DNA of 57,470 nt from positions 186,001-243,470 of the forward strand of contig QPGO01000141.1 of the NCBI GenBank assembly GCA_008632985.1, read 5' to 3'. Position numbers and translations under genes: made by a program. Under the pieces are notes generated by a model. The model was not told the origin of the DNA and ran no database searches. It saw only the letters and a program-made list of their open reading frames with translations. The stretch comes from Psammoneis japonica (taxonomy: Eukaryota). Numbering within the stretch: position 1 is the first letter of the stretch; the number at the start of each line of letters is the position of its first letter. Shown here one piece after another: positions 20,459-46,012 of this stretch.

Positions 20459-21082
20459 CTTGAAACAGTCGATAGAGAAAACAACTTTTGGGTCTTGTCA
20501 CCTCTACCGCATGAAGTTGCTTTTGGGGTTGCATCCGCGACTCCCTCTTTGTTCGTGCGAGAAACTTCAACACCGGTAAACCCCTTCGTAGCATCCACAA
20601 GGATCCGAATCCATGCTCGTAAACACCTGCGTGTCAAGGAGTTTCAAGTTGACGTCAGCGTGACGGAGGCTTGGCAGGCAAGCATCATCTGAATGACAAT
20701 GAATGGAGCACACGATGTGGTCCAAGGCTTTGGCTTCACAGAGTCTGTGATGAGCAGATTGCTACATGAAGCTGAGCCTTTCCATTGTCTAGTCTCCTTC
20801 TTTCAGAACCGCCATCATCCATCATGGTCACTTCTGTTTGAGGGTCGGAGGGAGGTTTTGTGGAAGATCGCGTCGCGCGGCACAGCTTCAATCAACGCAT
20901 GGAGCGCGCGGCCACCGGGCTTGAGCATCAGAAAAGCACACGCAACCACAGTGCATCGCCGCCACAAGCTCGAGCCATGATAGTTATCGAAACGAGAGTC
21001 TATGGCGGAGCGCGATGCTCATGGCTGGCAGAAAGACCAAAGTTGAAAGACAAGCAACAAAGCGACTGTCGAAGCCACCTGC

Positions 21083-24000
21083 CAGTTGTTTGCAGAGAAT
21101 CCAAAAGCAGATCCTGAATCCACGCCATTGCTGTTGTGTCCATTCGACGCACCAACTCCAACAGTCTTTCCGTCTGCCGACACAGACAATGACCACCCAA
21201 ATTTTTATCTCCTTGAGCCTTGCCATTCAAAGGATCACCCACCTGCTTCCATTCATTGGTGTCAGTGTCATGCTGAAAGATTCTAACTTGACCCGCATTG
21301 GCCAATCCATTTGCGCCATGCTCTTTGCTTCCAACTGCCACCACATTTCCATTTCCGCTCAACGACACCGAGTGTCCAAAATCATTGCTTGGCTGTTGGG
21401 TTGGCAAAGTTTGCCCACGCTGTTTCCATGCTGAAGAATCGTGATCATGGAAGCATGCCAAAACTCTTTCATTGCTTCGCAGCAATTAAATTTTTCTGTT
21501 CAGTGCCAGCAATGCTTGCATTCCCGGTGATCTCGTGAGCTGTGTGCATGATGATTTCCTGCCAAAACATGATCACATCTGTGAGTCGTGTCATGATGGA
21601 CCCGCCCAAAAAAGAGGTCATGTCTGTGAGTCATGCAAACAAAAACCCAAGCGCACACAAGGCACGTGAAATGAAACAACCCAAGACAATGCACTGCATG
21701 GAATGCACACAACAGAGCCGTTGTCCCATGTGGCATTGTGAGAAATGAAAAAGAACGCTTCTGGCCAAAAGTGCACAGCATTGTGCCAAATCCACTGTGA
21801 TGTCTCCCAAGCATTTGACGAACATGTTCCATTGTTTTTCTTGTGACAATTGGAGCAGCAAATTTCATGTGGAGATTTAATTTTTTTCGGGCAAGATGAT
21901 GCATCTCTACAGCACAAAAAAACACCACCACCTAAAGGTTTGACTGTGCACCAGAATTTTCATTTTTTGTGCTGACACATGAGGAGCCAGTGCACCCAGA
22001 GGCAGCTTTCAAAAAAAGTGTGGCACCAAATTCTGTGGCTCAAATTTTGTTGCAAGGTTGCAGGAAGTCATTTGGCACAGCAATGAGAGGAGAGCTGAGC
22101 TGCAGAGCAGCAACAAGATGTCCAAGAGATGTGCTTTCAACACAGCTGGAATGCTTGAGGACAACACATGAGATTTTCTGCATGTTTCTGCACAACACAC
22201 ATTGTTTGCACTGCACCCACATGGAAATCTCAAGCACCTGAGTGCAGACATCATTTTTTTCATGCACCAATCTGGCAACAATCACAAATCATGCAAACCA
22301 AAAATGGTGTCATGCCACCAACATCAAATTGTCAATTTTTGCACCAATTGTCAGAATGACATTCGTCAACACATTCATCAATCAACTTGATGCCAAACAA
22401 TTGTAAAGAACAATGTGTTTGTTGACACGTTCCTTGTCAACCAACTTGACCTGCCAAATGATGGCAGTGACTCTGGCCCTGGCAACAACATGGCCAGGAG
22501 GATTGGAGCAAGACAAATGTTGACTCGCTCCAACAGCCATGACATTGCCATCACGAGACAAGGAGACGGATTCACCAAAACTGTCTTCTGCAGCTTTGCC
22601 GTGCAAAACTTGACCAACAGGATTCCACATGGGTGTTGGAGTGGGGCGTTGAGTTGGATTGAGCATTGGACGAGGCGTTGGATTGAGAGTTGGATGAGGC
22701 GTTGGACTGAGAGTTGGACAAGGAGAGGGGTTCCCCATTGGCAATGCTGTTGGATTGCGGGTTGTTGGACCTGGAGTCGATGGTGGCGACGCGGGATCTT
22801 GTGTTGGCGGTTTTGCAATGGGAATGCTGTTTGCAGGAGGCGGGCGTTGGAGCAGCTGTGCCAGTTGAGACTTCACCAGTGCCAATCAAATTGTCAAAAG
22901 CATCGCTTCCGGCATTGGCACCCACCGCCTGGAGGTCATTCACGTGGGCCAACCTCCTTGCTGATGTCTTGAATGGCTCGGTCGCCATGGCATCCATGGA
23001 AATGTTGCCGTCACTGCTGTCGTCAGAAGCACACATGACAGCCTGATTGCATGTGATTTGAAGGGAGGATTCTCCATCACCCTTTTCTTGAACCACAACA
23101 GTGTTGGTGACCTCCAAAGTTGTCTTGACGTCTTGCACTGTTGATGCTTGTAAGTTACAAATCAACAATTCACCAAGGCCACGTTGATGACGAGTGTTGA
23201 AATGATCCTCGACGAATGCCTTGGTTGCCATGGCCTGCAACTCGGAATCGTTTTCTTCAAACTTGGCATCTAGACCAATCAAATGCATGACCAAACTGGT
23301 GGCTTGTTCGGCAGTCTCAGTGGCGGGTGCAAATGCAGGTGAAACCGCAGGGCTGCCTCCACCACCAGCATCCCACGGCTTTGCTGCAATGACAACCCCG
23401 ACAATCGCAGCAATGACCAATGCGATGACACCAAGAATTTTGAATCGTTTGTGAAGGCGCTCACAATGAAGCTCCTCTTCAGCACTCTCATTGTCTTGAT
23501 CAATGCGCGTTGTTTCATTTGCTTGTTCATTCCATCCAACACCACCATCAGCAGGAACCCCCTCTACAACTTGTGCCTGGTGAATCCCTGCTTCAAGCAA
23601 AGCAAATCGTTCCAGAAGAGCTGCAACATTTTCAGTTTCTTCTGCCAATCGAGCTTCGACGAGTGGAGCACCACCATTGTCAGTGCCAGCAGAATCATCT
23701 GGAGGAGGAGGCATTGAATCATTGGACCGCATCATTTCGGGTCCTGACAAGAGAGAAACATTGTCATCAGCGTTCCTTTCTCTTCGTTCCTCTGGTTCTC
23801 CTGGCCCAATGGCAATGGCACCAGCAGCATCTGCATCTACACCTGCAATGTCAGATGTTGAGTTTGAGGCAGTCATGGCGCCGATGTCGTCATCAGCACA
23901 ATCCAATTCAACAAGCAGTTGTTCTTCTTCTTTTTGTTCTTCAACCGCAAAGGCTTCTTCTGCTTGTTGCTGCTCTTGACGGCAGCGATGGGCAGTTTTT

Positions 24001-24170
24001 TGTTTCTTCTTTTTCTTGTGAGAAGCAGCGGTGGCCGTTTCTCCCCCGCAGGAATTGTTTTGTCAAATTCTTCCAGTTGTTGCTTCTCCTTTTCGTCATC
24101 CTTCAAGTTGCCGCAAACACCACGCCTGTCGCACATGTCATCAGTGTTGTTGTTGTTGAACGATTCACGA
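21083..24170 (-). pseudogene. Chimeric FG-GAP family pseudogene
   Basis: The 3' part (21083-21480) copies the end of gene 43256-46012. An unrelated insert occupies ~21481-22483. The 5' part (ORFs 22382-22885 and 22572-23906) resembles 4320-7282. Confidence 0.85.
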
Positions 24171-24568
24171 TTCATCACGGGGGTGAGCAACTCTACAACA
24201 AGAAAGATGCATGGACAAACCACCAACAAACAGCCACAATCCACAAGCCACACAAGTGAGAGGTTTGTGATGCCGCAGATGCAAGTTCTGAAGACAAGCG
24301 CACTTGAAGCACAAACGATGAACGCGGATGCGCACTCCCCAGCGTTCGGGACAAAGAAAATGCTCAGCACCATCCTCGAACGGACAAATGATGATGTTTG
24401 CTTTTGTGTTTCTTGCATGTTGTTCTGTCACTGCATGTCAAGTGAACAAGCACCAAGCAGCGTGTGGTTGTCAGGAGCTTTTTTTCATCCTTTTTGCACT
24501 GAGCTGCCAATGGTTTGAAATCTCTTCACCCACCGTGTCACCAACAAGAATGGCAAGCACTCGACAAA

Positions 24569-24920
24569 GCTCTGTTGCATCTTGGCAGGCTGTTGGGCAA
24601 AGCTTGTGAGCTGTTGATGTGGGCCCACCTCCATCCTTTGTGTTCTTGGACAGATTTTTCTCAAAGAAAAAGTGGCAAGTTGCAAGGTGGCATTGACTGT
24701 CATGATTGCCATGACCCCAACCCAGTTGAAATGTCTGCTCATGCTGCACTTTCACAAGCTCGTCGACAACCACCCATTTGGGCAGTTGAAGCACTGTTGA
24801 CAAAAGCCCCAACTGCCTCAACACAATTCAACATTCGTTGCCTCATTGAGTGTCACTCAACCCCGGTGTGTGGACACTCACATGTGCCAAAATGCCCCCA
24901 ACAATTTGGAGACCTTGGAT
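24569..24920 (+). pseudogene. PIG-B internal fragment copy 2
   Basis: Same fragment as 9519-9875. Confidence 0.85.
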
Positions 24921-25279
24921 GTGAGTTTGGACCTGATGTGTGCAATGCATGCTCACTGCCAGCTTCTGAGAGAGCTCTGGCACACAACACATGGGATGCT
25001 CCCACTGCTCTCTTTTTGCTGAACTTGCTGCCCCATGCATTCCAGGAAGCAACAGAATTGAGATTTTTCAAATTTCTCCCTCTGCCAAAACACCACACAC
25101 AGCGACATGTCCAGGGTGCAGCCATTTCCCCATTGTCACTCGCACCTTTACATCAATGAGGGTGCAGTCTCATCCAACAACAAGAAACAGATGCAGTGCG
25201 CAGCTGCAGCTCCTCAACTGATGGAGCACATTGTTGAACGAAATCAATGGCACCCCTCCGTTTTGCTGACTTGATTGAT

Positions 25280-27934: not shown

Positions 27935-28198
27935 GTGATGGGTTTGCAGTCCGGTAGAGTGTCTGAGGGACAGGTTGTTTCGTTTGCTGTCGTTGCTGTC
28001 GTTGCTGTCGTTGCTGTCGGTGATTTTCACGTACCATGCAATATCCATGATGGCGTCACCCGTCGATGCCCGTCGACGCAAGACGTTCGCATCAATCCGG
28101 ATTGATTGACGCAGCAAGGTCTCCTCGTGTAATCGTCCCAATGCTAAAATAACGTGTGAAACTCTAGCATTGTGAGCGAGGAGCATGCATGCCGCATG

Positions 28199-28606
28199 TT
28201 CAACAAATGAGTGAACCTTGTCATGAGCCTCTGCCAGTGAGGTCTTAGGCACCTTTGTGGCACCAGCAGCAGCAAACAGCAAAGTGATGCTCATCGAGAG
28301 AGAGTGAGAGGTGCTGAGATGACCCACTCTCAAGTGAGCCACAAAACTGGGAAGTTGTGTCATGCCACAGATGCCTTCTAACAGGGACAACAGAGATGTT
28401 CATGCAATGATGCAATCTCCCACATCAACATCAATGATGTCACAATGGTGCACTCACCAGCCATGATGGCCCATGAGGCATTTCCATCAACACAAAAAGC
28501 ACGAGAAATTCGGATGGATGACGAACGAGCAAAAAAGATGTTTCACTCAAATTGTTCCAGTGTTGTCCCCCCTGCTGTTCATAGAAATGCATGCAGCGAG
28601 CCGCAG
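28199..28606. repeat. ~405-bp direct repeat, copy 1
   Basis: Near-identical to ~30195-30597. Confidence 0.9.
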
Positions 28607-30194
28607 TTTAACATTCCATGAGACTGCAGAGTGATCAGGAAAATCAAACCAGCCCAGTTTAACAAGGTCAACTCCCACGACTGCAAGAGCACTTCCTCCA
28701 TTCATGAGCACAAGCACAATGCCACACGACCAAGAGGAAAATTGAGCCCTGTTCATTTTTCTCCTTTTTTTTGCAAAGTGGGAGGCAGCACAACACCCAA
28801 CAAATGACAAGAGCAGTGTCAAAGGGAGCACTGTGTGGGGATGAGTCCATGTCTGTTGCAATCAAAGCCTGGTCACTTTGAAAACACACAACAGAAACAC
28901 TGTGCCAAACACTGCACCCTTTCATGGGAAACACACCAGGCAGCACCATTCTTGCACTCAAATGAACAACACATGCTCAGCCAGTTGCTTGCTTTTTGAC
29001 TCAGCACCTGATCTGAGCAAATTGACACACTGCACACACAGGTTGTGGATGCATCGTTTGTTGCATTGTTTGTTGTGGTGCACATGATCAGGTGCCAAAC
29101 CAGCCAAAAAGCTGGTGCCCTCCCTTCTTGTTTCACCCTGCCAGAACTCAGGGGCCCTGCTGCTCTCCATTGCAAGGAAAAGCACAGTGGCACCCACAAC
29201 TTTCTGATGGCTGTCTCAGCAGAAACAACTGTGCAGCACTCCATAGAAAAGTTAGTCTCTTGAAGCTTCTGCATCCTTTCCATCTCTTTTTGATGACAGT
29301 GTGCCACTCTTGTGGCAATGACAGTCCACCGTCTGTGCTGCAGGCTGTCTTCAATGTTTTGCAGCCCTGTCTGCACCTCTGGTGTGCTTTGTTCTGTGGT
29401 GCAGGATGTGCAGCAGCTTGCTCTTTGTTGTGCATCAATGGCTGGCTTTGTTGCACTGGTGTGTGTTGCACTTGGGAGTGGGCAAGGACTGTTGGCAGGT
29501 CAACTGCAACAGGCTCTTCTCCAACTCTGATGGCAGAGTGCTCTCAAATGCAGTCCCCTGCAGTGATGAGGCAGACTTCCATGCCAGCAAGGATCAAAAA
29601 GAATGGGCAGCTGGTGCACAGCCTTCCACCATGAGCTTTGCCATTTTGTCAAAAGCCTCTTGTGATGGACAGAGCTTTGTCTGCTTGTTGCACAAAGCAG
29701 CATGGTTTGGTGGTGGCTCATTCATTGTGGCTGGACTTGACTCTGATGCAAGTGGGGAGAGACCACAGTGCAGCTTGTGCTTTGGAAGTGAAAGAGTTTG
29801 CTCTCTCAGGTGCAGGAAATGCTGACATTGAATTTTGCACTTCAACTGCTTTGTTCCATTTGTGGCATCTAAGCTCTCTGTCATCACAAAGGACCTGGCC
29901 TTCACTGAGGCATGTGTGCTCCTCATGTTTGCAGCCCTTCGAAGCAGCTGTCACCAGTGCTGCATGGCAAACATCACTTGTTTTAAGCTGACTGTGAGTT
30001 TCTTCTGTTTTCTCTCTGTGGTGCTGCCTGCATGCAACAAGAAATGATGTGCAGTCAAATTGTGGGAATTTGCTAAAGTGGAGCATGCCAGGGATGCAGA
30101 GGAAGAGCTCCTCTGTCCCTCTGTTGTGACCCACTGCCCAGGACATTTTTCTGGGGACCACACCATCAAAGTCACCTTTGTTGATCTCAAGTCA

Positions 30195-30597
30195 TTCAAC
30201 AAATGAGTGAACCTTGTCATTGGCCTCTGCCAGTGAGGTCTTGGGCACCTTTGTGGCACCAGCAGCAGCAAACAGCAAAGTGATGCTCATCAAGAGAGAG
30301 TGAGAGGTGCTGAGATGACCCACTCTCAAGTGAGCCACAAAACTGGGAAGTTGTGTCATGCCACAGATGCCTTCTAACAGGGACAACAGAGATGTTTGTG
30401 CAATGATGCAATCTCCCACATCAACATTGATGATGTCACAATGGCGCACTCACCATGATGGCCCACGAGGCATTTCTGTCAACACAAAAAGCACGAGAAA
30501 TTTTGATGGATGACGAATGAGTGAAAAAGATGTTTCATTTGAATTATTCCAGCGTTGTCCCCCTGCTGTTCACAGAAATGTGCGCAGTGAGCAGCAG
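30195..30597. repeat. ~405-bp direct repeat, copy 2
   Basis: Near-identical to ~28199-28606. Confidence 0.9.
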
Positions 30598-31189
30598 CTT
30601 TGGAATGTCAAAAGGGCCTGGTTCAATTTTCCAAGACCACTGCAGAGTGAGCAGGAAAGTTAAAACAGATCTTTTTCAGGCTGGATCGATGTTTGGCGGT
30701 CAATTTTATTTAGAGCTTGCATTTTTCTAAAAAAAACCGGATGTTTCACACCAATTGTGCACCTTCACCAAAAAAACATTTCAGCGATGGGCCAAACTTT
30801 GTCCATTCACAAGACAACATAGAATGCACTTAGGACCATTGCCGCCATTTCGCGACCTTTGGCTCAATGACTGCAGACATGTCCACAGCCAGTCAAATGC
30901 CAATTGTTGGCCTTTCCTGGAAAGTCATGGCTTGTCCAGCACAAGCAGTCTGATTTTGGCAAAAATGGTGGTTATCAACATCAACAACCAAACACGACAA
31001 CTGGCATTTGAAGGTTGACAAGCGCAGTTTGTGTGAAGGTCTAACAGCCCTGATGGGGGCTGGACACACTCACAAGTGTTTGGGGGTGCTCAGAGGCAAC
31101 GCAAAACAACACGGGCGAAGTGTGGGAAAATTTGAAAATCACGAGCTGTTTAAAAAAACAGTGCTGAGCAACGATCCAGCCTCAACCGT

Positions 31190-31410
31190 AGACACCAGTG
31201 CAAATTCCACGAGAGATGTTAAAAAACCTGCAAAGATGAACATCTTGAAAACCTTGAACTCCAAAAACGCACAAGTCGAAAACACGCTGTTTCGACAATG
31301 TCGCACTTTCGATGCAGCGAGCCCCTTGTAGACATCCATTCATCAACTTTTCAACATCATTTGACAAACCATGTTTCAATTGGCACATGTGTGTTTAATT
31401 TGTCAGCCGT
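31190..31410. repeat. ~220-bp direct repeat, copy 1
   Basis: agacaccag...gagatgttaaaaaacct...aaccttgaactccaaaaacgcacaagtcgaaaa shared with ~32853-33072. Confidence 0.85.
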
Positions 31411-32852
31411 TGACTCACTTTTGGTGCCGTGGAGGTTGCTTTGTTGTGGGAAGGACAAAACAACAGCATGAGATGAATTTTTCGACTTGTTCACACCCTT
31501 CTTGGTTGTAAATCAACAGTGCATTGACGCCGTTGTATTGTCCAATCGTCACAGAGTCTGTTGAACAGCAACAGCTGTTGACATTGTGTCTTTTTGACAT
31601 CATGTTGCCCCCAAAATTGGACACATCATGACGACAGCCAATGTCAACGCTTCGACGACCCATCAGATTGCAGCCACCACGTTTCATCCTGCTCTGTTCA
31701 CTCACGAGAATTTTGGAAATAAATCTATTTTGTTGCCATTGAAGCTGTCTTGCATTCTTGTGCTGCCATTGCTGTGCTGCATGGCTGTGGCAGAAACAAC
31801 GCCAAAGTTGAGATGCGAAATTTTTCGATGCATCGATCCTCTTCATGTTGATGAATCAAGGTGCTGCTGCTGTCATTGACATTTTAACATCTAAATTAGC
31901 TTATGCTGCAATTGCTTTGTGTGTTGCACAGTCTTTTGAGGCCGCGATGCTTGTTTTGTTGCAAAGCAACAAGAAACATCATGACGTTGCATGAATTTTG
32001 ACCCGAATTGTCGGTCTTTTTCACTTCAAAAGGCTCAACTGCTTGACACACATTTGGCCTTGTAGCTTCATTCACAACAATTGTACGTTTTGCACATCTC
32101 ACATTGTGGTGAAGTTGCTGAAATTGCCGTTGGAACGCCGCTGGCATCACGATTCGTCTTCCCCAACATTGCTTTGTTGTTCTTGTGCTGAGTGAATGGT
32201 CAAAAATTTACAGACTTTGCATCCAACGGACAGACATTCTGGCACACTTGGATGGTTAAATGAGCCCATTTTAATTTTCCAAGACACCTCATGGTGCTGC
32301 TGTTTTCTCGTACTTTCTATGCGGAGGGTACAGGGGTCGCTGATCCAATCGAAAAATCTCAGCGCACACATCCAGTGTTTGTTGTTTTTGTCGTAACACT
32401 TTCGCCAGATTGTAATGCTCACGAATTGGAATAATGTCATTTCTATATTTGACCGTAAATGTAGTGTTTATTATTTTCATAAATAAAATCCTTAAGACAT
32501 GAAGACACGTTTTGACTGCGGTTCTGACGCGCTCAAGCGCACGTACGTACGCATGATGTACCAAGAAAGACATGAGTGACGTCATTGATGACGTAATTTC
32601 AACTAAGACTGTTATTAGAATATAAGTTACGGAAAATGCAGTTGTCGCATTTCTTCGCCGATAATGTCTAACGGATATGTAATCGTGGGAATAATAAATA
32701 ATTACGACTGGATCGGCGACCCCTGTGCTGCTGGCATCTTTGGGAAATTAAAACAATCTGTTTTAACGATGACGTGGAAGGGCTGTATCCGTGTTAATTG
32801 TCCTTATTATGATGACACTGTAGAGTTAGCAGGAAAGTTAAAACAGATCCAT

Positions 32853-33072
32853 AGACACCAGCATAAATTCCACAAGAGATGTTAAAAAACCTCCAAAGAC
32901 GAATGTCTTGAAAACCTTGAACTCCAAAAACGCACAAGTCGAAAATGCTGTTTCAACAATGGCGCATTTTTGATGCAGTGAGCCCCTTGTGGACATCTGT
33001 TCATCAACTTTTCAACATCATTTGACAAACCACATTTCAATCAGCACATGTGTGTTCAATTTGTCAACAGTG
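32853..33072. repeat. ~220-bp direct repeat, copy 2
   Basis: Matches ~31190-31410. Confidence 0.85.
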
Positions 33073-35574
33073 TGAGTTAAAAAATGCATGATGGAACAGC
33101 AAGTGTTGCAGGTCATCCTTTGAGCAAAGTGCCTTGTGTGTGGCACAAGCTCTGCATTGCACCACACAAGGGCAGCTGACATTTTGCTTTGCACCCCATG
33201 CCACAAGGCAGGTGTCTGACAAGGTGCCAACTTTAGTCAAAAAGAGGTGTCATTTGCCTCAAGACATGAGTGTGTCATCCATTGAGATGTGGTGGCAGAA
33301 AACCATTTTTGGCAGTCCTGCAGAGCAGAAGCCCATCACCACACCAGCGATGAAGCACAACCATGTGCGGTTCTTTGCAGCATCATGTTGCTGAGATGGG
33401 CAGGTGAGGGAAAGGCAAAGAAATTGTCGCTGAAGGCAAACCAAGCATGACAGAAGCCAGAACTCAGGTGTGGCAGTGCCAGTGAGAGCTGTGCTCTCAG
33501 GTGCAGGTGTGCACTTGTGCCTGAAGCCAACAAAACAAGAAATTCTTAGAATCAAAAGATGCAGCAACACCCCAGAACATGCACTGGTGGCCACAGCAGG
33601 TGATGCAGGTGCCAACAAGGGACTTTGCATGGTTGTCACTGCTGGATTGTCAACACCGGCCAATGTGGGGGGTGCGCTCACTCTTGCTGGAGGAGCCTCC
33701 ACACAATTGCTTGGTGTGCTGCACACATGTGGCATGCTCTTAGATTCACTGCAAGATGCAGGAGCACCTCCACAGTGCCAGTCAGTTTTTGTGTGTGGCA
33801 CAGTGGAGTGCTTGACACACAGGCCACTTGCACAAAGTTGTGACAAGACTGTCCATGCCAGCTGATGAAGGGCTCATTGTGGCCAATGATGGTGGAGTCA
33901 GAGGCACCAGGAGCACATGTGGCTCAAAGGAAAAGAGCTTGTTCCGGCTTTGCAACAATTGACATCACATTGGGGTTGAAGTGAACACACACATTGCAAC
34001 AACTGCAATTGTTGGTTTTGTCTGACAAGCCTCAAGAGCTTCTTGGATTTTGTGGTCAAACATCATTGTTTGTCTAGAAAGTTGCAAGATGGGCTGAGTT
34101 GTCATCACCCAGCAGAGCTCTCTCACTTGAAGAGTCACTTTCTTGAACAACAATGCAACAGAGCTTGCATTTGTGGGATCTCTCATTGCAGGCACAGTGC
34201 AAAGGAATGGGCAATGGTGTGAGACCACATGTGTGATGGAGCAGCCACAACAGCAAAGTCCACAAGTGACAAGAACCTCTTCCCTCTGCAAACCTGACAG
34301 TGACAACAGCATGTGCACTGGCAAGAAAGAGTGGGAAGCAGATCTCAGGCAGAGATCTGCTCAACTGTCCAGAATGGTCAAACCCATTGTCCACACACAG
34401 CCTGCTTGTCATCCATGGATTTTGTGTGCTGACACACAGTGTGCTCTTCCAAGCAATTCAACAGCGCAGCAGCAGTTTGTGCCAACATGTGCAGTGCTTC
34501 CTTTTGTTGAAGTGTGCCTTGTCATCATTGCTGCCTTCCTCTTGTCTTTGTGTCATTTTTCTTGCAAAACATCTCCTGCTGCAGGCAAGCCTTTCCAGTG
34601 CCTGAATCTCTGTTTCTTGTTGTTTCTTTTTTGCTTGTCAATCTGCTCTTGCTCCAAAGCCTCTGGTCTTCCCCTTGCTCTGGCTGCCTCCTGCCACTCC
34701 ACCTCCACTGCTTTCTGCCATTTGGCGCACTTGTTCTTTTGCTGGCACTGCCGAGCTTCTGCAACAACAAGCCCATCAATGCCAGCTGAGCACATTCTGG
34801 CTCCAAGCAAGCTCTTCTTTTACATCCTGCTCAGCTCTGAACATTGTTGCTTCCTGTTCTTTGATGTGAGCCACTCTTCTGCCAGCAGACCCCTTTCTGC
34901 TGCTGCTGCTGCTGTTTGTTCTGTCCATGGTGATGGGTGCTTCATGCTTTGTGTGGCATGGCAGCACATGCACCCACACCACAACGTTGATGTCTGGGCC
35001 ACTTTTGTGCACAAAAACTTGCAGCCCACACCAGGTGAAAAAGGCCCAACTGCAAAACAATGAAGCAATTTCTCTTCAAGGAGATTGGGGCTGTCATGAG
35101 TCACACACCACCATCTGACAATCTGCTGAGTTTGTTGCTTTGCACAGGAACACAGCTTTTTCACACAACTTCAACTGAGCACAAACAATTTTTCATCTGT
35201 GGTGGCTGGAGATTGCTTCTGCTTCTTAGACTCTCTTTGCAGAACAACCACTTTTTGACATCAGCTGCATGCCCTCAGCTTCTTCTGTGTGGGTTTCTGC
35301 ACAACTTCTTGCACTGATGTTGCCCTTTCCTTCTCAGACAGTGCCTTGTTGGCTCCAACAAGCCCATTTTTTTCACATCTGCCAATGGCACAACCTTGTC
35401 ACAGCATGATGAGCAATGTTCATCAGTGGAAAATGACAAGTGTCAAAGTCTCATGGTTTTTTGCATGTGCTGGTTGTCATTTGTCACAATTTTCCATTGT
35501 CTCAGCAGAAAATTTTCCACACAGGTTCCGGTGCAAATTCTGTGCAGTTCAGCAGAAACTGCTGACAATTCACA

Positions 35575-36040
35575 TGTCACATCTCAGGACTGCTTTTGTC
35601 CTTGCCAATTGGTCTTCAATGCTGCTTCTTTTCTCTGTTGTTGATCAAGTCCTTTGCTCTTTTGGGTAAAAGTGCTTTCTCTGTTGCAGCCTTTCCAGCA
35701 AGAACATGAGTTTTCCTTTGGCGTCATTGATTGTCGCCCATTTGTTGCTCTTGCTGGCTTTTCTGCACAAGATCTGACATTGTTTCTGCATGACACCACT
35801 GACTGCTGTCTGCTTGTCACATCTCTGGACTGCTTCTGTCCACACCAGCTGGTCTCCAACACCACTCATTCTCTCTGTTGTTCAGCCAAGTCCTTTGCCC
35901 TTTGGAGTGAACGTGCTGCCATTGTTGTGGCCCTTGCAAGCATGAACATGAGTTGTCCTTCTGTGCCATTTGATTGTCATCCCTTTGCTGTGTCCACCTG
36001 TTGGCTTTTCTGCACAAGATCTGTTGTTGTTTCTGCATGC
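35575..36040. repeat. Degenerate tandem repeat, ~240-bp period
   Basis: tgtcacatctc.ggactgctt.tgtcc at ~35575 and ~35815; ggcttttctgcacaagatctg at ~35756 and ~36003. Confidence 0.7.
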
Positions 36041-37766
36041 AACAAATGTTTTCTTTGATGATCTGCTTGTCTCACCTTCAAGCATGGCTCCTGGTTCAAC
36101 ACATCCAAGCCCTGTGCAATCTTTCTTCTTCTTGCCAGCCATCCCAGCTCACAGCTTTTTTCTTGTTGTTAGCACAGATCTTCTTGGTGCAAGAATGAGT
36201 GGCCTCAAAGTGCCAGCTTGTGCCAGTTTTGGCAGCATGATGTTCCAAAGTGTTTTGTGGGCTCCTTTGAACACCTGTCTGAGTGCAATTGTCCTTTGCA
36301 GTTGTGGCATGCCTTCTGTGGCTGTCGCCATCAAGCATGCAACAAATTCCTTGTGCAGGTTGTTCTTTTTCAGTTGTTTGGTGTGGGGTGTCACCTTCTG
36401 GCAGCACTCATTCTGGCTGATCTCCCATGCAAGCTCCTGCTCCACCAAAGCAGTGTGCTGCAACAAGTGTGGGTCAGCCAGTGCCGGCCTGGCTGGCAGT
36501 GCAGCAACAGTGCTAAAAGTGTGGATCTGTTTTTTTCTCTTTGCAGAACAACCAGGCTTGGGACTTGTGCAGTGAGCTCCATGTCAAAGACACTCAATGA
36601 GGGCTTTTGTTGTTGTTGGACTTGCTGCAAGAGGATCCAAACACCCACATTTGCCAGAAATCCTGCACATTTTGAATTTTTGCAGCTGTGATGGGCAGCT
36701 GAGCTTGGTCAAGAGAAATGACTGTTGAAGAAACTGTTGAAGGTTCTTGCACCTTTTTGCATGATTTCAATGTGTTTGAAAGTTGGCTGGGTGCTCCATT
36801 GAAGATTTTGGATTTGTTTGGTTGCCACGTGGTGTCCACACACACAAGATGCTTCATGTGCTTGAAGAAGTTTGTGCAGGAGAGTGCAAATGACAACTGT
36901 GCCTTTGAAGCTGTGCTGGCTCCAGCAACCCAGTTCAGAGAAAATCTGCCAGAAGAAGGTTCCTCAGGATGATGGTGTTTGGCAACTTGCAGCAGCTTTC
37001 CAGACATCCCAAAGGATGAAAATGTGTTGGGACAAGAGCTGGAGTGGATGTGTCTTGTCTGTTGCACAGTTGGTGTGAGGAGGAGGTGATGTGGCTCCTG
37101 CCAAACAACAGAGAGGGAAAGACACCAGCTGTGTGCCTGCTGAGCTTTGTTCAATGTGCTCCAGCCCTGACTCAGCATTGCCTTGAGAGTTGCTTGAGGG
37201 TGCGGGGCTTTCTCTTTCCTGCTGTGTTGCATGATTGTCCCAGCTGGAAACAAAGCCTGTGCTGGCAGGTGAGCCAGTGCAGCTTCATTTCAAAACAAGG
37301 TCACGCAAGTCCCTGTCAAAAAAACCCACATCTCCAATTTACAGTGCTGCCACACCACTGTCCAGCAAAGCTGTTGTGGGCCAACCCACACTTCCAGCAC
37401 TCCCTGTCAACCAGCCAGTTGTTGTGATGTCTGAAAAAAGCCAGCGAACAAATGTCACATCAATGGGAGAGCTGAGGCACCATTTGCTCCAGCTTTGTCA
37501 TGCAGAAACCCTCTCCAGTGCCAACACATGCACCAACAACAACTGCTGGCACAGTCATCATCCATGACTTGTGGAATGGTTTGAACTTGCTCAACAATTG
37601 GCCACTGACCAGCAGCAGTGCCATGAGTGGAGCAGGTGCCCATGAAACAAGAAAAAACAATGACGACAGTTGTCGAAACGAGAGTCTGCAGCATGGAGCG
37701 ATGCTCATGGCTGGCAGAAAGAACAAAATTGAAAGACAAGCAACAAAGCAACTGTCGAAGCTGCCC

Positions 37767-40700
37767 ATTGGTTGTTCACTGAGAATCCAAAAGCAGATCC
37801 TGAAACCAAGCCGTTGCTGTGACATCCATTTGATGCACCAACTCCAACAGTCTTTCCGTCTGCCGACATGGACAATGACCACCCAAATTCATCTCCTTGA
37901 GCCTTGCCATTCAAAGGATCACCCACCTGCTTCCATTCGTCAGTGTCACTGTCGCACTGAAAGATTCTAACTTGACCCGCATTGGTTGATCCATCTACAT
38001 CATGCTCTTCCTTCCAACTGCCACCACATTTCCATTTCCGCTCAACAACACCAAGTGTCCAAAATCATCACTTGGCTGTTGGGCTGGCAAAGTTTGCCCA
38101 TGCTGTTTCCATGCTGAAGAATCATGATCATGGAAGCATGCCAAAACTCTTTCATTGCTTTGCAGCAATTGAATTTTTCCATTTGCCAGCAATGCTTACA
38201 TTCCTGGTAATCTCGTGAGCTGTGTGCATGATGATTTCCTGCCAAAACATGATCGCATCTGTGAGTCGTGTCATGATGAACCCGCCCAAAAAAGAGGTGA
38301 TGTCTGTGAGTCATGCAAACAAAAACTCAAGCACACACAAGGCACGTGAAATGAAACAACCCAAGACAATGCACTGCATGGAACGCACACAATAGAGCCG
38401 TTGTCCCATGCAGCATTGTGAGAAATGAAAAAGAACGCTTCTGGCCAAAAGCACACAGCATTGTGCCAAATCCACTGTGATGTCTCCCAAGCATTTGACG
38501 AATGTGCTCCATTGTTTTTTTGTGACAATTGGAGCAGCAAATTTTAAGTGGAGATTTAATTTTTTTTGGGCAAGATGATGCATCTCCACAACACAAAAAA
38601 ACGCCACCACCTGAAGGTTTGACTGTGCACCAGAATTTTCATTTTTTGTGCTGACACATGAGGAGCCAGTGAACCCAGAGGCAGCTTTCAAAAAAAGTGT
38701 GGCACCAAATTCTGTGGCTCAAATTTTGTTGCAGCCAAGGTTGCAGGAAGTCATTTGGCACAGCAACAAGAGGAGAGCTGAGCTGCAGAGCAGCAACAAG
38801 ATGTCCAAGAGATGTGCTTTCAACACAGCTGGAACACTTGAGGACAACACATGAGATTTTCTGCATGTTTCTACACAACACACATCATTTGCACTGCGCC
38901 CACATGGAAATCTCAAGCACCTGAGTGCAGACATCATTTTTTTCATGCACCAATCTGGCAACAATCACAAATCATGCAAACCAAAAATGGTGTCATGCCA
39001 CCAACATTAAATTGTCAATTTTTGCACCAATCGTCAGAATGACATTCGTCAACACATTCATCAATCAACTTGATGCCAAACAATTGCAAAGAACAATGTG
39101 TTTGTTGACACGTTCCTTATCAACCAACTTGACCTGCCAAACAATGGCAGTGACTCCGGCCCTGGCCGGACAGCAGAAAAAAGTGAGCAGATTTGAGGAC
39201 AGAAGATGCAAAAAATCAGGGGAAAGCATGAGATTAGATGAGACACTTGTTCTTGCACAAAAAGCACAGTGATGGAAAATGGATGGGCACAGTGCCACAC
39301 CACCCTTGCAAATGCGTGCCCCACCTGGGACAAAAACACATTGTCAAGAGCACACCCAGAACAAAAGGGATCTAAATGTCACCAAATGCCCCCCAACAAC
39401 ATTCCAAGCATTTTTTGTTGTTGAACACATCTTTTTCATTTCAAAAGCACAAAACAGGAAGACACTGAATGACAAGTGGCTTTTTGTTTTGTTGGGAAAA
39501 TCCTGGCAGACACAACAACCATGTCTGGCCAGCCTCCATGCAAAATGGTCCATGCGTTGGCTGACTTCATCCCACTTGGTTTGAACCAACCAATGACACA
39601 AATTCTGCTCAAGTCACACACCAACAATCAAGCAGGTTCTACACATCTCCTTCCAACCACAAGACGGGGCCACAATCATCAACGCCATCATGGACCCTTG
39701 TTCTTGTCACTGAAACAAGATCCAACGAAGAGTGAAACACCTGAACATGACCGGCATTCGTTCCGCCACTGCCATTCCATGAAGCTCCAATGACAAGAAT
39801 CGTGCCATCGCCATTTGACAAAACAGACTCGCCAAACTCCTCACCACCGGCTTGTCCAACCAATTCTCAGCCAATTTGCATCCATTTGGCGGGTGTCAGG
39901 ATTGTGTTGTTGCACAACAACATAGCCAGGAGGATTGGAGCAAGACAAATGTTGACTCGCTCCAACAGCCATGACATTGCCATCACGAGACAAGGAGACG
40001 GATTCGCCAAAACTGTCTTCTGCAGCTTTGCCATGCAAAACTTGACCGACAGGATTCCACATGGGTGTTGGAGTGGGGCGTTGAGTTGGATTGAGCATTG
40101 GACGAGGCGTTGGATTGAGAGTTGGATGAGGCGTTGGACTGAGAGTTGGACAAGGAGAGGGGTTCCCCGTTGGCAATGCTGTTGGATTGCGGGTTGTTGG
40201 ACCTGGAGTCGATGGTGGCGACGCGGGATCTTGTGTTGGCGGTTCTGTGATGGGAGTGCTGTTTGCAGGAGGCGGCATTGGAGTGGCTGTGCCAGTTGAG
40301 ACTTCACCAGTGCCAATCAAATTGTCAAAAGCATCGCTTCCGGCATTGGCACCCACCGCCTGGAGGTCATTCACGTGGGCCAACCTCCTTGCTGATGTCT
40401 TGAATGGCTCGGTCGCCATGGCATCCATGGAAATGTTGCCGTCACTGCTGTCGTCAGAAGCACACGTGACAGCCTGATTGCATGTGATTTGAAGGGAGGA
40501 TTCTCCATCACCATTTTCTTGAACCACAACAGTGTTGGTGACCTCCAAAGTCGTCTTCATGTCTTGTGCCGTTGACACTTGTAAGTTACGAATCAACAAT
40601 TCACCAAGGCCGCGTCAACGACAAGTGTTGAAATGATCCTCGACGAATGCCTTGGTTGCTGTGGCCCACAACTCGGAATCGTTTTCTTCAAACTCGGCAT

Positions 40701-41625
40701 CTAGACCAATCAAACGCATGACCAAACCGGTGGCTCGTTCAGTGGTCTCAGTGGCGGGTGCAAACGCAGGTGAAACATCAGGTGAAACCGCAGGGCTGCC
40801 TCCACCACCAGCATCCCACGGCTTTGCTGCAACGACAACCCCGACAATCGCAGCAATGACCAATGTGACGACACCAAGAATTTTGAATCGTTTGCGAAGG
40901 TGCTTGCAATGAAGCTCCTCTTCAGCACTCTCATCATCTTGATCAATGTGCGTTGTTTCATTTGCTTGTTCGTTCCGTCCAGCACCACCATCAGCAGGAA
41001 CCCCCTCTGCAACTTGTGCCTGGTGAATCCCTGCTTCAAGCCGAGCAAATCGTTCCAGAAGAGCTGCAACATTTTCAGTTTCTTCTGCCAATCGAGCTTT
41101 GACGAGTGGAGCACCACCATTGTCAGTGCCAGTAAAATCATCTGGAGGAGGAGGCATTGAATCGTTGGACCGCATCGTTTCGGGTCCTGACAAGAGAGAA
41201 ACATTGTCATCAGCGTTCCTTTCTCTTCGTTCCTCTGGTTCTCCTGGCCTGATGGCAAAGGCACCAGTGGCATCTGCATCTGCACCTGCAATGTCAGCTG
41301 TTGAGTTTGAGGCAGTCATGGTGCCGATGTCGTCATCAGCATGATCCAATTCAACAAGCAGTTGTTCTTCTTCTTTTTGTTCTTCTTCTTTTTGTTCTTC
41401 AACCGCAAAGGCTTCTTCTGCTTGTTGCTGCTCTTGACGGCAGCGATGGGCAGTTTTTTGTTTCTTCTTTTTCTTGTGAGAAGCAGCGGTGGTCGTTTCT
41501 CCCGCAGGAATTGTTTCATCAAATTCTTCCAGTTGTTGCTTCTCCTTTTCGTCATCCTTCAAGTTGCCACAAACACCACGCCTGTCGCACATGTCATCAG
41601 TGTTGTTGTTGTTCGAACGATTCAC
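37767..41625 (-). pseudogene. Chimeric FG-GAP family pseudogene
   Basis: ORFs 40615-41625, 39841-40599, 39639-39863 and 37705-37926, with an insert at ~38165-39730. The natural stop TAA is converted to CAA (FSVNN-Q). Confidence 0.85.
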
Positions 41626-42026
41626 GATTCATCATGGGGGTGAGCAACTCTACAATGAGAAAGATGCATGGACAAACCACCAACAAACAGCCACAATCCA
41701 CAAGCCACACAAGTGAGAGGTTTGTGATGCCGTAGATGCAAGTTCTGAAAACAAGCGCAACTTGAAGCACAAACGATGAACACGGATGCGCACTCCCCAG
41801 CGTTTGGGACAAAGAAAATGCTCAGCACCATCCTCGAACGGACAAACAATGATGTTTGCTTTTGTGTTTCTTGCATGTTGTTCTGTCACTGCATGTCAAG
41901 TGAACAAGCACCAAGCAGCGTGTGGTTGTCAGGAGCTTTTTTTCATCCTTTTTGCACTGAGCTGCCAATGGTTTGAAATCTCTTCACCCGCTGTGTCACC
42001 AACAAGAACAGCAAGCACTCGACGAA

Positions 42027-42381
42027 GCTCTGTTGCATCTTGGCAGGCTGTTGGGCAAAGCTTGTGAGCTGTTGATGTGTGCCCGCCTCCATCCTTTGTG
42101 TTCTTGGGCAGATTTTTCTCAAAGAAAAAGTGGCAAGTTGCAAGGTGGCATTGACTGTCATGATTGCCATGACCCCAACCCAGTTGAAATGTCTGCTCAT
42201 GCTGCACCTTTCACAAGCTCGTCAACAACCACCCATTTGGGCAGTTGAAGCACTGTTGACAAAAGCCCCAACTGCCTCAACACAATTCAACATTCATTGC
42301 CTCATTGAGTGTCACTCAACCCCGGTGTGTGGACACTCACATGTGCCAAAATGACCCGCAACAATTTGGAGACCTTGGATG
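42027..42381 (+). pseudogene. PIG-B internal fragment copy 3
   Basis: FLKEKVASCKVALTVMI...IHCLIECHSTPVCGHSHVPK vs intact FLKEKVASYKVVLIVMI...IHYLMGCHSTPAYSHLHVPK. Confidence 0.9.
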
Positions 42382-43255
42382 TGAGTTTGGACCTGATGTG
42401 TGCAATGCACGCTCACTGCCAGCTTCTGAGAGAGCTCTGGCACACAACACATGGGATGCTCCCACTGCTCTCTTTTTGCTGAACTTGCTGCCCTGTGCAT
42501 TCCAGGAAGCAACAGAATTGAGATTTTTTCAAATTTCTCCTTCTGCCAAAACACCACACACAGCAGTCCAAAGCGCCATCAACAACAATGAACAGATGCC
42601 AGTGCAAGCCACACCACAAAAGCTTGTCACATGTGCTTTTCTGTTGATGCCCCTCTTTTGCCAAGCACCTGCCTTTTTTGTGAGCCCTGTTTTGGAAAGT
42701 CTGCAGAGAGCTTGGTTTCTCCCATTTCTGAAAACACAGCTGGGCTGGGCACTTTGTCAATGCCTGGGGGAGGTGTCTGGACCTGCTGGAAATGAAAACT
42801 TGGCTTCGGGTGCTCCAAGCAAGTCAACAGCAAAATTGATTTTTTTCTTCTATTTGCACCCAGTGGCTTGTGTGCTGTGCAGCGGGGGCTGCTTTGCCAT
42901 GCACAGGAGACAGGGACCAATGTTGCATGGAGACATGCCAAGGCTGGCCAGAGCATGTCAACAGCAGCAGCTCAAATGGCATGTTTGAGCCATGCTCAAA
43001 CACTTTGACATGATCTCAGTGGATGTGGGACAAACATGGAAAGATTTTGATGCCATTGCATGTCCTCTGCAGATGCCACCACACAGAGAGCAGCAGCTTT
43101 GACAGGCATTGCAGCAGCTGCAAGGCCCATCTTGAAACAGTCAACAGAGGCAACAACCTTTTGGTCTTGTGGCCTGTGCAATGGAGCGATGCTCATGGCT
43201 GGTAGAAAGAACAAAATTGAAAGACAAGCAACAAAGCAACTATCGAAGCTACCCA

Positions 43256-46012
43256 TTAGTTGTTTACTGAGAATCCAAAAGCAGATCCTGAATCCACGCC
43301 ATTGCTGTTACGTCCATTCGACGCACCAACTCCAACAGTCTTTCCGTCTGACGACATGGACAATGACCACCCAAATTCATCTCCTTGAGCCTTGCCATTC
43401 AAAGGATCGCCCACCTGCTTCCATTCGTCGGTGTCACGGTCGTACTGAAAGATTCTAACTTGACCCGCATTAGTTATTCCATCTACGTCATGCTCTTTAC
43501 TTCCAACTGCCAACATATTTCCATTGCCACTCAACGATACCGAGTGTCCAAAATCATTACCTGGCTGTTGGGTCAGCAAAGGTTGCCCAAGTGATTTCCA
43601 TGCTGAAGATTCGTGATCATGGGAGTATACCAACACTCTTTCATTGCTTCGTGGTGCACCCACTGCCAGGATTGAGCCACTGTCATCAAGAGAAATCGAA
43701 TATCCAAACTCACCACGAACGACAGCTCCATCGATTGGATCACCGAATGGCTCCCATGAAGAAGATTTGTATTCATACACCAAGACCTGACCGGCATCCT
43801 CCCCCGCAGAATCATTTCTATATGCTCCAACGGCAACAATACTCCCTGAGCGATTCAAACAAACGGAGCGTCCAAATCCAGCATCGGCGGCTTGGCCGAC
43901 AAGTGTCTGTCCAAGCTGATTCCAACTTGAAGTACTAGGATTGTATTGAAATAACCGAACCGATCCAGAACGAAATGATCCCACGGCCAGAGTATCTCCC
44001 GCATCCGACAGAGAGACGGAAACACCAAATCGATCACCAGCCGCTTGTCCTTCAATTTTGTTTCCGTGCGGGTCCCATTGATCTGTGGAAACATTGTATC
44101 GAAACACTCGGACCATACCGGCATTGTGTCCACCGCTGTCGTTCTCATCGGCTCCAACCGCAAGAATCGTTCCGTCGCCATTTAACGACACGGACTCACC
44201 AAAATCGTCACCCCCCTTTTGTCCGAGTAATTCCTGGCCAGTACGGTTCCATGTTTTAGTGTCACGATTGTATCGATAGACCGACACGTAACCAAAAAAT
44301 ATCGAATTCGCCTGAGAGGCTCCCACTGCCATTACAGTTCCATCTCTCGACAACGAGACGGAATGACCAAACGAGTCTTTTGCCGCGTTACCATGCAAGA
44401 CTTGTCCCAAAGGCTGAAATGTAAGGTCTGGCAGAGGCCCAGGTGGCGTGGGAGACAGGGTAGAAGGTAATAACGTTGGCTCGAGCGTCGTGGGTGGCAT
44501 GGTTGGGGTTGGCAATGGAGTTGGTGTTGGAGAAGGCGTCGGAATTGGTGTCGGTGGACGTGTAGTAGGGGGCGGTGTCGAAGCAGTGGGAGAAGGAGTA
44601 GCGGGCGGTGTTGTTGGTATTGGCGTCGTTGGGCTTATCGTTGAGGGGCTCGTAGGAGGTGGAGTACTCAAGGTAGGAACAGGTGTTGGATTTGGCGTTG
44701 ACTTTTGCGTTGGTGCACTCGTCGTAGGGGATGGAGTGGCAGACGTAGGAACAGGAGTAGGGTTTGGCGTTGGCTTTTGCGTCGGTGAACTCGTCGTAGG
44801 GGTTGGCGTAGCAGTGGTTGAAACTGGAGATGGGTCTGGCGTTGGCATCGGCGTTGGTGATTCAGTAGTTGGAAGTGTAGGAGCAATGCTTGGTGTGGTA
44901 GATATCGAAGCAGACTGCGAAAGAGTTGGCTCTGGTGTGGGAGATGAATTTGGGCTCGAAGTTGGCGTTGGAGGCGGTGATTCAGGATTACTTGTCGGGG
45001 ACATTGTAGGCATTGCGCCGAGCGTCATGCTAACTGCAGTCAATCCATCAAAAATGACGTTTCCTGAAGCCTTACCAGTTTCTGTCAGGTCGTTTGCATA
45101 TGCATTTCTAGATACATCAGTCCTGAATGGCTCGGTCACCAAGCGGTCAATCGAAACGTCGTCGCCCTCGAAAGTATACGTAACAACTTGGCTGTAGGTG
45201 ACAAGCAAGGATGAGTCCGTGCCGTTATCACCAGCCTGTACAAGATCAGTATCAGTTACTTCCAATGTAATTTCAACGTCTTGAACATTGCTTATTTGTA
45301 GCAATCTCAGCAACCGACGTTGGCCACTGTTGTAAAAGCCCTCAACATATTTCTTGGTTGTAGTGGTCCATAGTTCCGTATCAGCTGCATCAAACTCTTT
45401 CGTTACACCATTCAAAGTCATTTCCAGTCCCGCTGTTTCTTTTGTTGTCCTGCTCTCGTTATTGCCACCGTCACCTCCACCACCGGTCACTGCAATAACA
45501 ATACCGACAATCGCTACAAGGAGCACTGCTGCTGCTATTCCTAGACAAAGGCGGCGCTTAGAGCGAGGCTGAGTCGTCTCCTCTTCTTGTTCCTCCGCGT
45601 TATGATGGTAATAACTAAAGAGAGACTTGAGTGAACTAGGTACACGAAACATAATGTTTCGCTCATCATCATCATCGGTCTCATCCTCAACGCGTGTCGT
45701 ATTTACGGGTTCTGCCACTTGTGTTTCCACCAACAAGGGAGGAACTGCTACCTGACGTAAATGTCGAATTTCTTCTTCAAGTCGAGCAGCCTCCTCATCC
45801 GTTACTTGAGCAAGCTCTGCTTGAACCACAAAAGCGCCTTGTCCATTGCTGGGCGTGCTGGAGGATGGTTCCGAAAAGAATGTAACATTGTCGGGATCTT
45901 GTCCTGCTCTTGGAATAGCTTGTCCGTGTTGAATGGCAAACGCACCAGCGACCGGACCTTCCGGGTCCCATGCCAGTTGTTCTTGTTGCTCTTGTTGTTT
46001 CTCTCGTCTCAT
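43256..46012 (-). CDS. Type II membrane protein with SEA-like domain, long Pro/Thr mucin-like stalk and FG-GAP beta-propeller (~918 aa), intact
   Basis: Intact ORF with [33 protein letters not shown], a ~190-aa PT stalk and six to seven FG-GAP-like blades. Tyr are retained. The start could lie slightly upstream. Confidence 0.9.

Follow-up and report, generated by a model that had tools for sequence, protein, structure and literature searches.

Hypermutation confined to the TpA dinucleotide has been described in the rhizarian Bigelowiella natans. According to the main text of that preprint, 230 of the 231 mutations recovered from two integrated viral regions in mutation-accumulation lines were A>G or T>C, the GC-biased mutations all fell on TpA, and their rate was about 1000 times that of the background (10.64898/2026.01.13.699255). 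The integrated DNA is of giant-virus and virophage origin, the genome contains TpA-poor clusters rich in CpA+TpG, and an ADAT2-like agent is proposed there (Mettrop et al., bioRxiv 10.64898/2026.01.13.699255). Here we analyse a 57,470-bp stretch of the diatom Psammoneis japonica (contig QPGO01000141.1, positions 186,001 to 243,470; called the window below, with positions counted from its first base), from which all our counts are taken. Within domains that have sharp limits it carries TpA-specific A:T>G:C changes that affect both strands and have a flank bias, which can be read from the 116 TA sites surviving there. The data are probably best described as a domain-limited conversion of TpA to TpG or CpA that has run nearly to saturation, at a rate set by the base 3' of the target A and about three times higher for a pyrimidine (Y) than for a purine (R).

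The process resembles that of B. natans in that only TpA is hit, that A:T>G:C changes give TpG or CpA according to the strand, and that discrete regions are affected. The differences are that the B. natans host is a rhizarian with direct evidence from mutation accumulation, whereas the diatom case is known here from sequence alone; that the depletion reported for the giant-virus region is mild (rho TpA 0.45), whereas the diatom domains, at 0.00-0.25, are near saturation; and that the reported targets are viral, whereas the recognisable diatom targets are dead copies of host genes, together with repeats. The words 'context', 'flanking', 'trinucleotide', 'CpG' and 'diatom' do not occur in the main text of the preprint, so neither the preference for a 3' pyrimidine nor the nested loss of CpG described below is reported in that main text (10.64898/2026.01.13.699255). 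In the literature we found no report of TpA hypermutation in diatoms. The window thus joins the hypermutation of the B. natans type; it takes this process into diatoms and into duplicates of endogenous genes, and supplies a flank rule for it.

The window was scanned for dinucleotides in 500-bp bins and then segmented into TA-depleted domains. Seven such domains (2911..12188, 15071..16011, 20740..25231, 28301..30561, 33003..43107, 48398-49713 and 50219-51150) make up 29,325 of the 57,470 bp and hold the 116 surviving TA, compared with 954 TA outside them. Depleted stretches have 0-8 TA per 500 bp and a rho TA of 0.00-0.25, mostly <0.1, against 8-30 TA and 0.25-0.80 elsewhere; the depletion is about 10- to 30-fold, and the rho of TG+CA reaches up to about 2 in the same stretches. 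At the 500-bp scale the edges are sharp, with 30 TA in 32501-33000 and 2 in 33001-33500. The largest domain, 33003..43107, retains 32 TA in 10,105 bp and stops about 150 bp short of the stop codon of an intact gene at 43256-46012. Comparison of the window with itself identified the depleted domains as copies of adjacent TA-normal genes or of one another, and the targets that can be recognised are dead copies of host genes of the FG-GAP/kinase, TLC and Alg9 types. The parent genes are TA-normal, including the 3' flank of the gene at 43256-46012, only about 150 bp from the depleted domain.

The changes themselves are visible in the three closest pairs of parent and copy, in which 13 of 17, 16 of 17 and 7 of 8 parental TA have become CA or TG in about equal numbers. 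The first two pairs share a TA-normal parent, the 3' end and 3' flank of the intact kinase/FG-GAP gene on the minus strand (43181..43649), with copies at 37693-38160 and 21012-21479. Of its 17 TA, one copy has 7 as CA, 6 as TG, 2 as TA and 2 as something else, and the second has 7 CA, 9 TG and 1 TA. The third parent (53084..53221, plus strand) is part of the intact TLC ATP/ADP transporter gene 51977-53224, and its 8 TA are found as 4 TG, 3 CA and 1 TA in the fragment 3834-3971, which lies in the domain 2911..12188. The transporter orthologues of six other diatoms side with the intact gene, while the fragment shows the replacements Tyr>Cys, Tyr>His, Ile>Val, Arg>Gln and Thr>Met; because the orthologues agree with the intact copy, the direction TA to TG/CA is secure as judged from these alignments. 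In pairs at least 88% identical, the fraction of A changed to G was 37/90 where the preceding base is T, 22/223 for C, 4/226 for A and 4/170 for G, so that the rate after a 5' T is about 4 times that after C and about 20 times that after A or G; the rate after C is itself about 4-5 times that after A or G.

Two depleted sister copies, 20979-25103 and 37665-42564, are 93-95% identical, and the first occupies the domain 20740..25231. Their substitutions are transitions in 92 of 99 and 88 of 100 cases, and 37 differences are double ones in which one sister has TG and the other CA. Such double differences are independent hits on one ancestral site, and mutation therefore continued after the duplication. 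TG and CA products are balanced at the kilobase scale and interleaved base by base, and runs tests for clustering by strand gave z values from +1.4 to -2.7, that is, weak clustering at best.

The original prediction held that TA sites surviving between 28180 and 37600 are mostly YTAR, the only context in which neither strand reads TAY, and that the mutator prefers TAC and TAT. The counts bear this out. Between 33100 and 37600, 7 of the 10 surviving TA are YTAR (p=0.0035 against an expectation of 0.25, this range taken alone): TTAG at 33234, 33547, 33741, 35227 and 36170, CTAG at 34075 and CTAA at 36514. The other three are TTAC, twice, and GTAA. This range has neither a Pfam domain nor a homologue elsewhere in the window, and its survivors cannot be polarised because such a homologue is lacking. 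Exact counts also gave the claimed YTAR dominance at 7770-12100 (7/12) and at 28180-31400 (17/25), a range that extends beyond the depleted domain 28301-30561 into DNA of intermediate TA density. With the three ranges pooled, 31 of 47 survivors are YTAR, with binomial p=3.9e-9 against 0.25 and 1.1e-6 against 0.313, the most conservative null.

For all seven domains together the survivors comprise 6 RTAY (5%), 60 of the mixed classes YTAY and RTAR, and 50 YTAR (43%); outside the domains the figures are 289 (30%), 502 and 163 (17%). The difference is strong (chi2=58.9, p=1.7e-13; odds ratio for YTAR 3.7), and later transitions do not blur the classes, since transitions keep a flanking base within purines or pyrimidines. 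RTAY is absent from five of the seven domains. The tallies of RTAY, mixed and YTAR are 5, 20 and 16 in 2911..12188, 0, 13 and 6 in 20740..25231, 0, 3 and 8 in 28301..30561, and 0, 17 and 15 in 33003..43107; in the domains that are also depleted in CpG (the heavy domains) they are 0, 19 and 33 (n=52). The bias also holds against an in-domain first-order Markov null, which expects 31% YTAR (p=1.7e-4). In aligned pairs, TA survived at 1 of 43 RTAY, 4 of 47 mixed and 3 of 15 YTAR sites.

Expressed as survivors over the TA-normal count, the contexts run from CTAG (14/26), TTAA (15/57) and CTAA|TTAG (21/80) through GTAA|TTAC (19/133), CTAC|GTAG (17/134), ATAG|CTAT (11/94), GTAC (6/60) and ATAA|TTAT (13/141) to ATAC|GTAT (0/161) and ATAT (0/68). 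We fitted these strand-symmetric tetramers with a Poisson model that treats the action of the strands as independent, and obtained loss exponents of 2.09 for TAT, 1.47 for TAC, 0.68 for TAA and 0.45 for TAG. The Y/R rate ratio is 3.0 (likelihood-ratio statistic 66.4, one degree of freedom), and four separate rates improve only modestly on two (8.6, two degrees of freedom). The preference is thus graded, TAT >= TAC > TAA > TAG, with no clean switch between Y and R. The next base also matters among survivors: in TAY (p=1.3e-4) and TAR (p=6.5e-7) half-sites alike, the second base 3' of the A is enriched for purines; TAGA is the most resistant half-site (53/126), TACT (2/112) and TACC (3/112) are the most sensitive, and TACG (14/128) lies in between. 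A bias towards a 3' pyrimidine is found in A>G changes after purines too, at GAY (22/250) versus GAR (6/211; p=0.01) and at AAY (26/289) versus AAR (11/247; p=0.04). That the preference is not absolute had been noted from a cattag sequence changed to cattgg, and this example stands: the parent reads CCCATTAGTTG, with its TA at 43257-43258, and the copy reads CCCATTGGTTG, so that the parental TTAG at 43256-43259 is TTGG in the copy, the changed base being 37770 on the plus strand.

The preference can be examined independently of survivors at YTAY and RTAR sites, where the product, TG or CA, reveals whether the A of the TAY or of the TAR strand was changed; the two analyses are largely independent. 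In the sister copies and the pairs of a normal and a depleted copy taken together, the TAY strand was changed 27 times and the TAR strand 11 times (p=0.014), and in the sister copies alone 16 and 4 times. The strand richer in pyrimidine at +1/+2 was the one changed in 37 versus 16 cases (p=0.0055), and in 47 versus 24 the change fell on the half-site whose survivor ratio was lower (p=0.0086). The ratio of about 2.5 from strand competition agrees with the value of about 3 from survivors, and survivor contexts, rate fit and strand choice together support a preference for TAC and TAT.

In the mechanism that we consider probable, a mutator converts the A of 5'-TA on either strand, and dead gene copies and repeats have become almost saturated. 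RTAY would be a good target on both strands and would have vanished, while YTAR, poor on both, would persist. By analogy with known enzymes we infer an adenine deaminase that acts on DNA, requires a 5' T and turns A into inosine, which is read as G. What guides it would be the silenced, duplicated or foreign state of the chromatin rather than homology alone, because the parent genes are TA-normal and pairing of the type seen in fungal repeat-induced point mutation (RIP) would be expected to affect both copies. No deaminase domain was found among the open reading frames (ORFs) scanned in the window.

The heaviest domains have also lost CpG, which falls to 0.03-0.3 of expectation in 15.6 kb of the TA-depleted DNA and is normal in 9.7 kb of it. 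The domain 28301..30561 has 11 TA and 16 CG in 2261 bp and the short domain 15071..16011 has 2 TA and 9 CG in 941 bp, both being depleted in the two dinucleotides, as is the stretch 7501-12000 in the domain 2911..12188. Within 33003..43107, CpG is depleted at 33003-39500 and 42001-43107 and normal at 39501-41500. The stretches 48398-49713 and 50219-51150, over ORFs of the FG-GAP family, are TA-depleted with normal CpG. Two tiers can be recognised along the window, a CpG-normal one with 0.82-0.95 of normal density (4001-7500, 22501-24500, 39501-41500 and 48398-51150) and a CpG-poor one with about 80% of CpG lost (3001-4000, 7501-12000, 28501-30561 and 33003-39500). No stretch in the window is CpG-depleted and TA-normal, so TA was lost earlier or faster than CpG. 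CpG survival hardly depends on the flank (ACG 0.16, TCG 0.16, CCG 0.20, GCG 0.27). Because it is almost without flank bias and nested within the loss of TA, we read the CpG loss as a separate process, which from its pattern would most simply be a second and slower one, the decay of methylated CpG. Copies differ by CA/CG more often before a pyrimidine (51 versus 25 at mixed-class sites), which would reflect either weak activity of the mutator at CAY that creates CpG or a decay of CpG biased to RCG. A bookkeeping of product excess (YTGY+RCAR +21.7 per kb, YCAY+RTGR +6.6 per kb) could be taken for a very strong TAY bias and was not used, as it mixes products derived from TA and from CG; its direction in the CpG-depleted domains disagrees with the aligned CG sites, where the C changed in RCG 51 times and in YCG 25 times.

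Several observations weigh against the preferred reading of a TAY-directed mutator. It depends on one window with 116 survivors. The strand-choice signal comes mostly from the sister copies, in which TA is assumed to be ancestral; the pairs of normal and depleted copies alone give 11 versus 7 (p=0.48), and the +2 position taken alone has no effect in that test (11 versus 10). The multiplicative rate model misses the total loss of ATAC|GTAT, with 0 observed and 4.8 fitted, and TACG, the equivalent of the native TadA motif, is only intermediate in sensitivity (14/128). A>G is in excess at CpA (22/223), through a secondary activity or through wrongly polarised decay of CpG; it may be a weaker activity of the same enzyme after C, which would fit the bias towards a 3' pyrimidine found at GAY and AAY. 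At least three YTAR survivors are new, namely 3361 TTAA (TTGA in two normal paralogues), 4957 CTAG (CG in two other copies) and 6007 CTAA (CCAA in a paralogue). Finally, YTAR is denser in the CpG-depleted domains (2.1 per kb) than in the CpG-normal ones (1.1 per kb). Simple ageing does not predict a higher density in the CpG-depleted and presumably older domains, and new sites or a different ancestral composition therefore probably contribute to it.

An improbable reading of the same data is that the mutated base is the thymine of 5'-R-T-A, changed T>C, for instance through a TET/JBP-type oxidation to a derivative that pairs with G. In the sequence, T>C in RTA looks the same as A>G in TAY, and the counts of survivors, strands and rates are symmetric between the two. 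The steps T-A, with T as 5-methyluracil, and 5-methylcytosine-G moreover share the form of a 5-methylpyrimidine followed by a purine, and the heaviest domains have lost TA as well as CG. This parallel is weakened by the CpG loss itself, which is nearly without flank bias and absent from 9.7 kb of TA-depleted DNA, so that the two losses are separable. We know of no thymine-directed process that gives a clean and saturating T>C, whereas the route from A through inosine to G is well-established chemistry.

The original prediction saw its own weak point in the possibility that YTAR survivors are newly created sites, and it was partly right to do so. A homologue in the window exists for 53 of the 116 survivors, and among the 16 YTAR survivors with one, 3 are new, 8 instances (4 sites) are retained or shared, as CTAA at 21284, 37968 and 43456, and 5 are ambiguous. 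That the TA now present are mostly new, made by C>T or G>A at the abundant CA/TG after hypermutation had ended, with a YTAR bias arising from this creation, is a reading to which we give little credence. The three new YTAR sites above and 5442 ATAG, which also looks newly made (4957 and 5442 are CG in two to four other copies), are what it would lead one to find, as is the denser YTAR in CpG-depleted domains. The contexts of CA/TG within the domains would yield 23.6% RTAY, 53.2% mixed and 23.3% YTAR, against the 5, 52 and 43% observed (p=1.3e-8), and the heavy domains have 0 RTAY among 52. New sites alone cannot explain the near-absence of RTAY; four YTAR sites (the 8 instances) go back to a parent or are common to sister copies, and the strand-choice test is made without survivors. 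Should the mutator still be at work, the TA now standing would report removal rates whatever their origin.

A bias in the ancestral NTAN composition, through non-coding or transposon DNA rich in TAA and TAG, is very unlikely to account for the pattern. Composition does vary in TA-normal DNA, where YTAR makes up 14% in long ORFs and 21% outside them, and 33003-37665 and 7400-12188 have no origin that Pfam could trace: the ORFs of at least 90 aa in 33003-37700 gave no Pfam match, and among the 69 such ORFs of the heavy domains 68 had no credible match, the matches being one FG-GAP (2911-3249) and one sub-threshold Claudin_3. The bias nevertheless holds against the TA-normal non-coding baseline (outside long ORFs: YTAR 21%, RTAY 26%) with p=2.4e-8, or 4.7e-11 for the heavy domains, and it is equally found in copies of coding genes, as the tally for 20740-25231 illustrates. 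A composition of 63% YTAR and 0% RTAY would be implausible for any DNA.

ADAR-like hyper-editing of RNA from A to I, followed by reverse transcription and insertion, would likewise produce clustered A>G with a 5' U/T preference, and ADAR targets include repeats and duplicates. We consider it highly improbable here. ADAR substrates are RNA, whereas both DNA strands are affected in the window; editing of one RNA strand would yield a single type of product, whereas TG and CA are interleaved and balanced, with weak runs, and the sister copies kept gaining hits in place. ADARs favour a 3' G, whereas TAG is the slowest and most resistant context here. An ADAR-type agent was rejected on these grounds.

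That the depletion is an artefact of assembly, polishing or base calling at modified bases has next to nothing to recommend it, since, although systematic miscalls at modified motifs are known in long-read data, the copies also carry indels, such as a 1-bp deletion in 37693-38160 relative to its parent, and changes outside TA, and the depleted sequence recurs, with few or no differences, in Logan unitigs of the public sequencing run X1 (k-mer depth about 55-65) at the depth of the normal gene. One X1 contig matches 949 bp at 36558-37506 with 0 differences (depth 60.9) and a second matches 1624 bp with 5 differences, both at the depth of the intact gene 44671-46500 (about 64); exact contigs matching the domain 33003..43107 have a depth of 58-61. 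Run X1 may come from the source sample and is then independent of the assembler and not of the DNA. The depleted DNA is not an artefact of assembler or polishing.

The same run contains many contigs that are 90-95% alike and differ mostly by transitions. In parts of 30.5-31.7 kb and 34.8-36.6 kb the contig depths add up to 250-1268 (to 250-726 at 34787-36637), where single-copy DNA has about 60, so that parts of the heavy domains are multi-copy in the genome. Among 40 listed of the 249 differences between the window and contigs of other copies, 8 are at TA and 10 are CA/TG to CG. A second run of the same sample (X2) covers only 43297-45991, in the intact gene, exactly and at low depth, and 39723-41573, where its contigs are deeper and 90-95% alike. 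Such coverage would fit a transcriptome in which paralogues located elsewhere are expressed, and we draw nothing on expression from it. A metagenome scan with an alignment of the FG-GAP family found no relative. A scan of 80 algal TLC loci (598,602 bp) found two isolated 500-bp bins with rho TA <0.2 and no depleted domain; these are gene-dense contigs and uninformative on how widespread the process is.

Among other systems, RIP of ascomycete fungi is similar in that dense, dinucleotide-specific transitions kill duplicated DNA within sharp limits and over repeated rounds. It converts CpA to TpA by C>T, creating TpA and lowering GC, whereas the diatom process destroys TpA, and it usually affects both duplicates, whereas the diatom parents are TA-normal. 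Its opposite direction and the spared parents rule RIP out.

TadA and ADAT2-ADAT3 are closer in chemistry, with deamination of an adenine that is read as G, at A34 following U33, and a 5' T and 3' C would fit the TadA motif as described. They act on tRNA loops or single strands; in the window TAT is hit at least as readily as TAC, and TACG is well behind TACT (14/128 vs 2/112). At position 35 most substrates of eukaryotic ADATs carry a purine, the opposite of the preference in the window. Bacterial TadA is reported to edit mRNA only within UACG/YUACGAA (PMC11472039). Amphioxus ADAT2 can deaminate DNA, and its reported preferences in E. coli DNA, GAA for A and TCG for C, are neither of them those of the window (PMC10354150). 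The likeness to TadA remains an analogy. CDD/CDA-like deaminases specific to stramenopiles and bearing SAM and Tudor domains, and an LmjF36.5940-like group, have been predicted (Iyer et al. 2011, PMC3239186). Together with ADAT2 paralogues they would be candidates, with nothing in the window connecting them to the process.

As for the setting, intact long ORFs of the window encode an Alg9-like mannosyltransferase, protein kinases, FG-GAP beta-propellers, a protein with a Crinkler-like N-terminus and the TLC ATP/ADP transporter. The last has up to 79% identity to database proteins, and because its named matches are all from diatoms (including Amphora, Cylindrotheca, Seminavis, Mayamaea, Nitzschia and Fistulifera), these similarities identify the window as diatom nuclear DNA.

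The domain 2911..12188 holds dead copies of the FG-GAP propeller gene at 2836-3389 and 4270-5589, as well as an ORF of 639 codons on the minus strand (5275-7194) with a single Tyr. The encoded product combines N-terminal repeats rich in Lys/Arg with a hydrophobic segment and the beginning of an FG-GAP propeller, and no homologue of this Tyr-poor sequence was found among 8000 candidates scored. Two other long frames in TA-depleted, CpG-normal DNA, 22572-23906 and 40615-41625, are also on the minus strand. Such frames may owe their length to the loss of TAA and TAG stops, or may be genes recently killed or still in use. Tandem duplications occur inside depleted domains at 6496-7148 (units of about 213 bp, 83-85% identical, which encode the Lys/Arg-rich repeats) and at 35575-36039 (a 220-bp pair, 76%).

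The domain 28301..30561 is bracketed by direct repeats of about 410 bp (28199-28609 and 30195-30600, 91.7% identical) and by its structure looks like a repeat-flanked element. Close by, direct repeats at 31186-31405 and 32849-33066 (220 bp, 88.6%) bracket a TA-normal unit of 1.4 kb with a GC content of 0.41. Both units look like elements of the long-terminal-repeat type, or otherwise repeat-flanked, of different ages, and the TA-normal one at 31186-33066 may have been inserted after the mutagenesis.

The window has a clustered, fast-diverging gene family that combines a protein kinase with an FG-GAP/Kelch-like propeller and, in one member, a Crinkler-like N-terminus (16973-20458, 43256-46012, 53744-55390 and 26348-28390). 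Its intact members (65-82% identity) and hypermutated dead copies alternate, a pattern suggestive of birth-and-death turnover under the policing of the mutator.

The 2026 chlorarachniophyte preprint is so far the one report of TpA-specific hypermutation, and the diatom provides a second and ecologically dominant lineage. The flank rule is a biochemical fingerprint for candidate deaminases and speaks against an agent of the ADAR kind; for scanning genomes, a statistic of RTAY lost and YTAR kept is better than TA depletion alone. A natural DNA adenine deaminase, if the reading is true, would be of interest for base editing, as the class is known mainly from laboratory-evolved TadA variants and one report on amphioxus ADAT2. 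The diatom case also widens the reach of the process from viral insertions to duplicates of endogenous genes, which it can erase. It is tempting to go further, although we do so tentatively and with more doubt than belief, and to speculate that diatoms defend their genome with an enzyme that deaminates nuclear DNA at the adenine of 5'-T-A-Y(-Y), acting on both strands wherever the chromatin carries marks of duplicated, foreign or silent DNA. This would be a 'reverse RIP' shared with Bigelowiella and possibly ancient in the group of stramenopiles, alveolates and Rhizaria, and a natural DNA adenine deaminase that may also have reshaped the expanding kinase/FG-GAP family in the window by rapidly killing its new copies.

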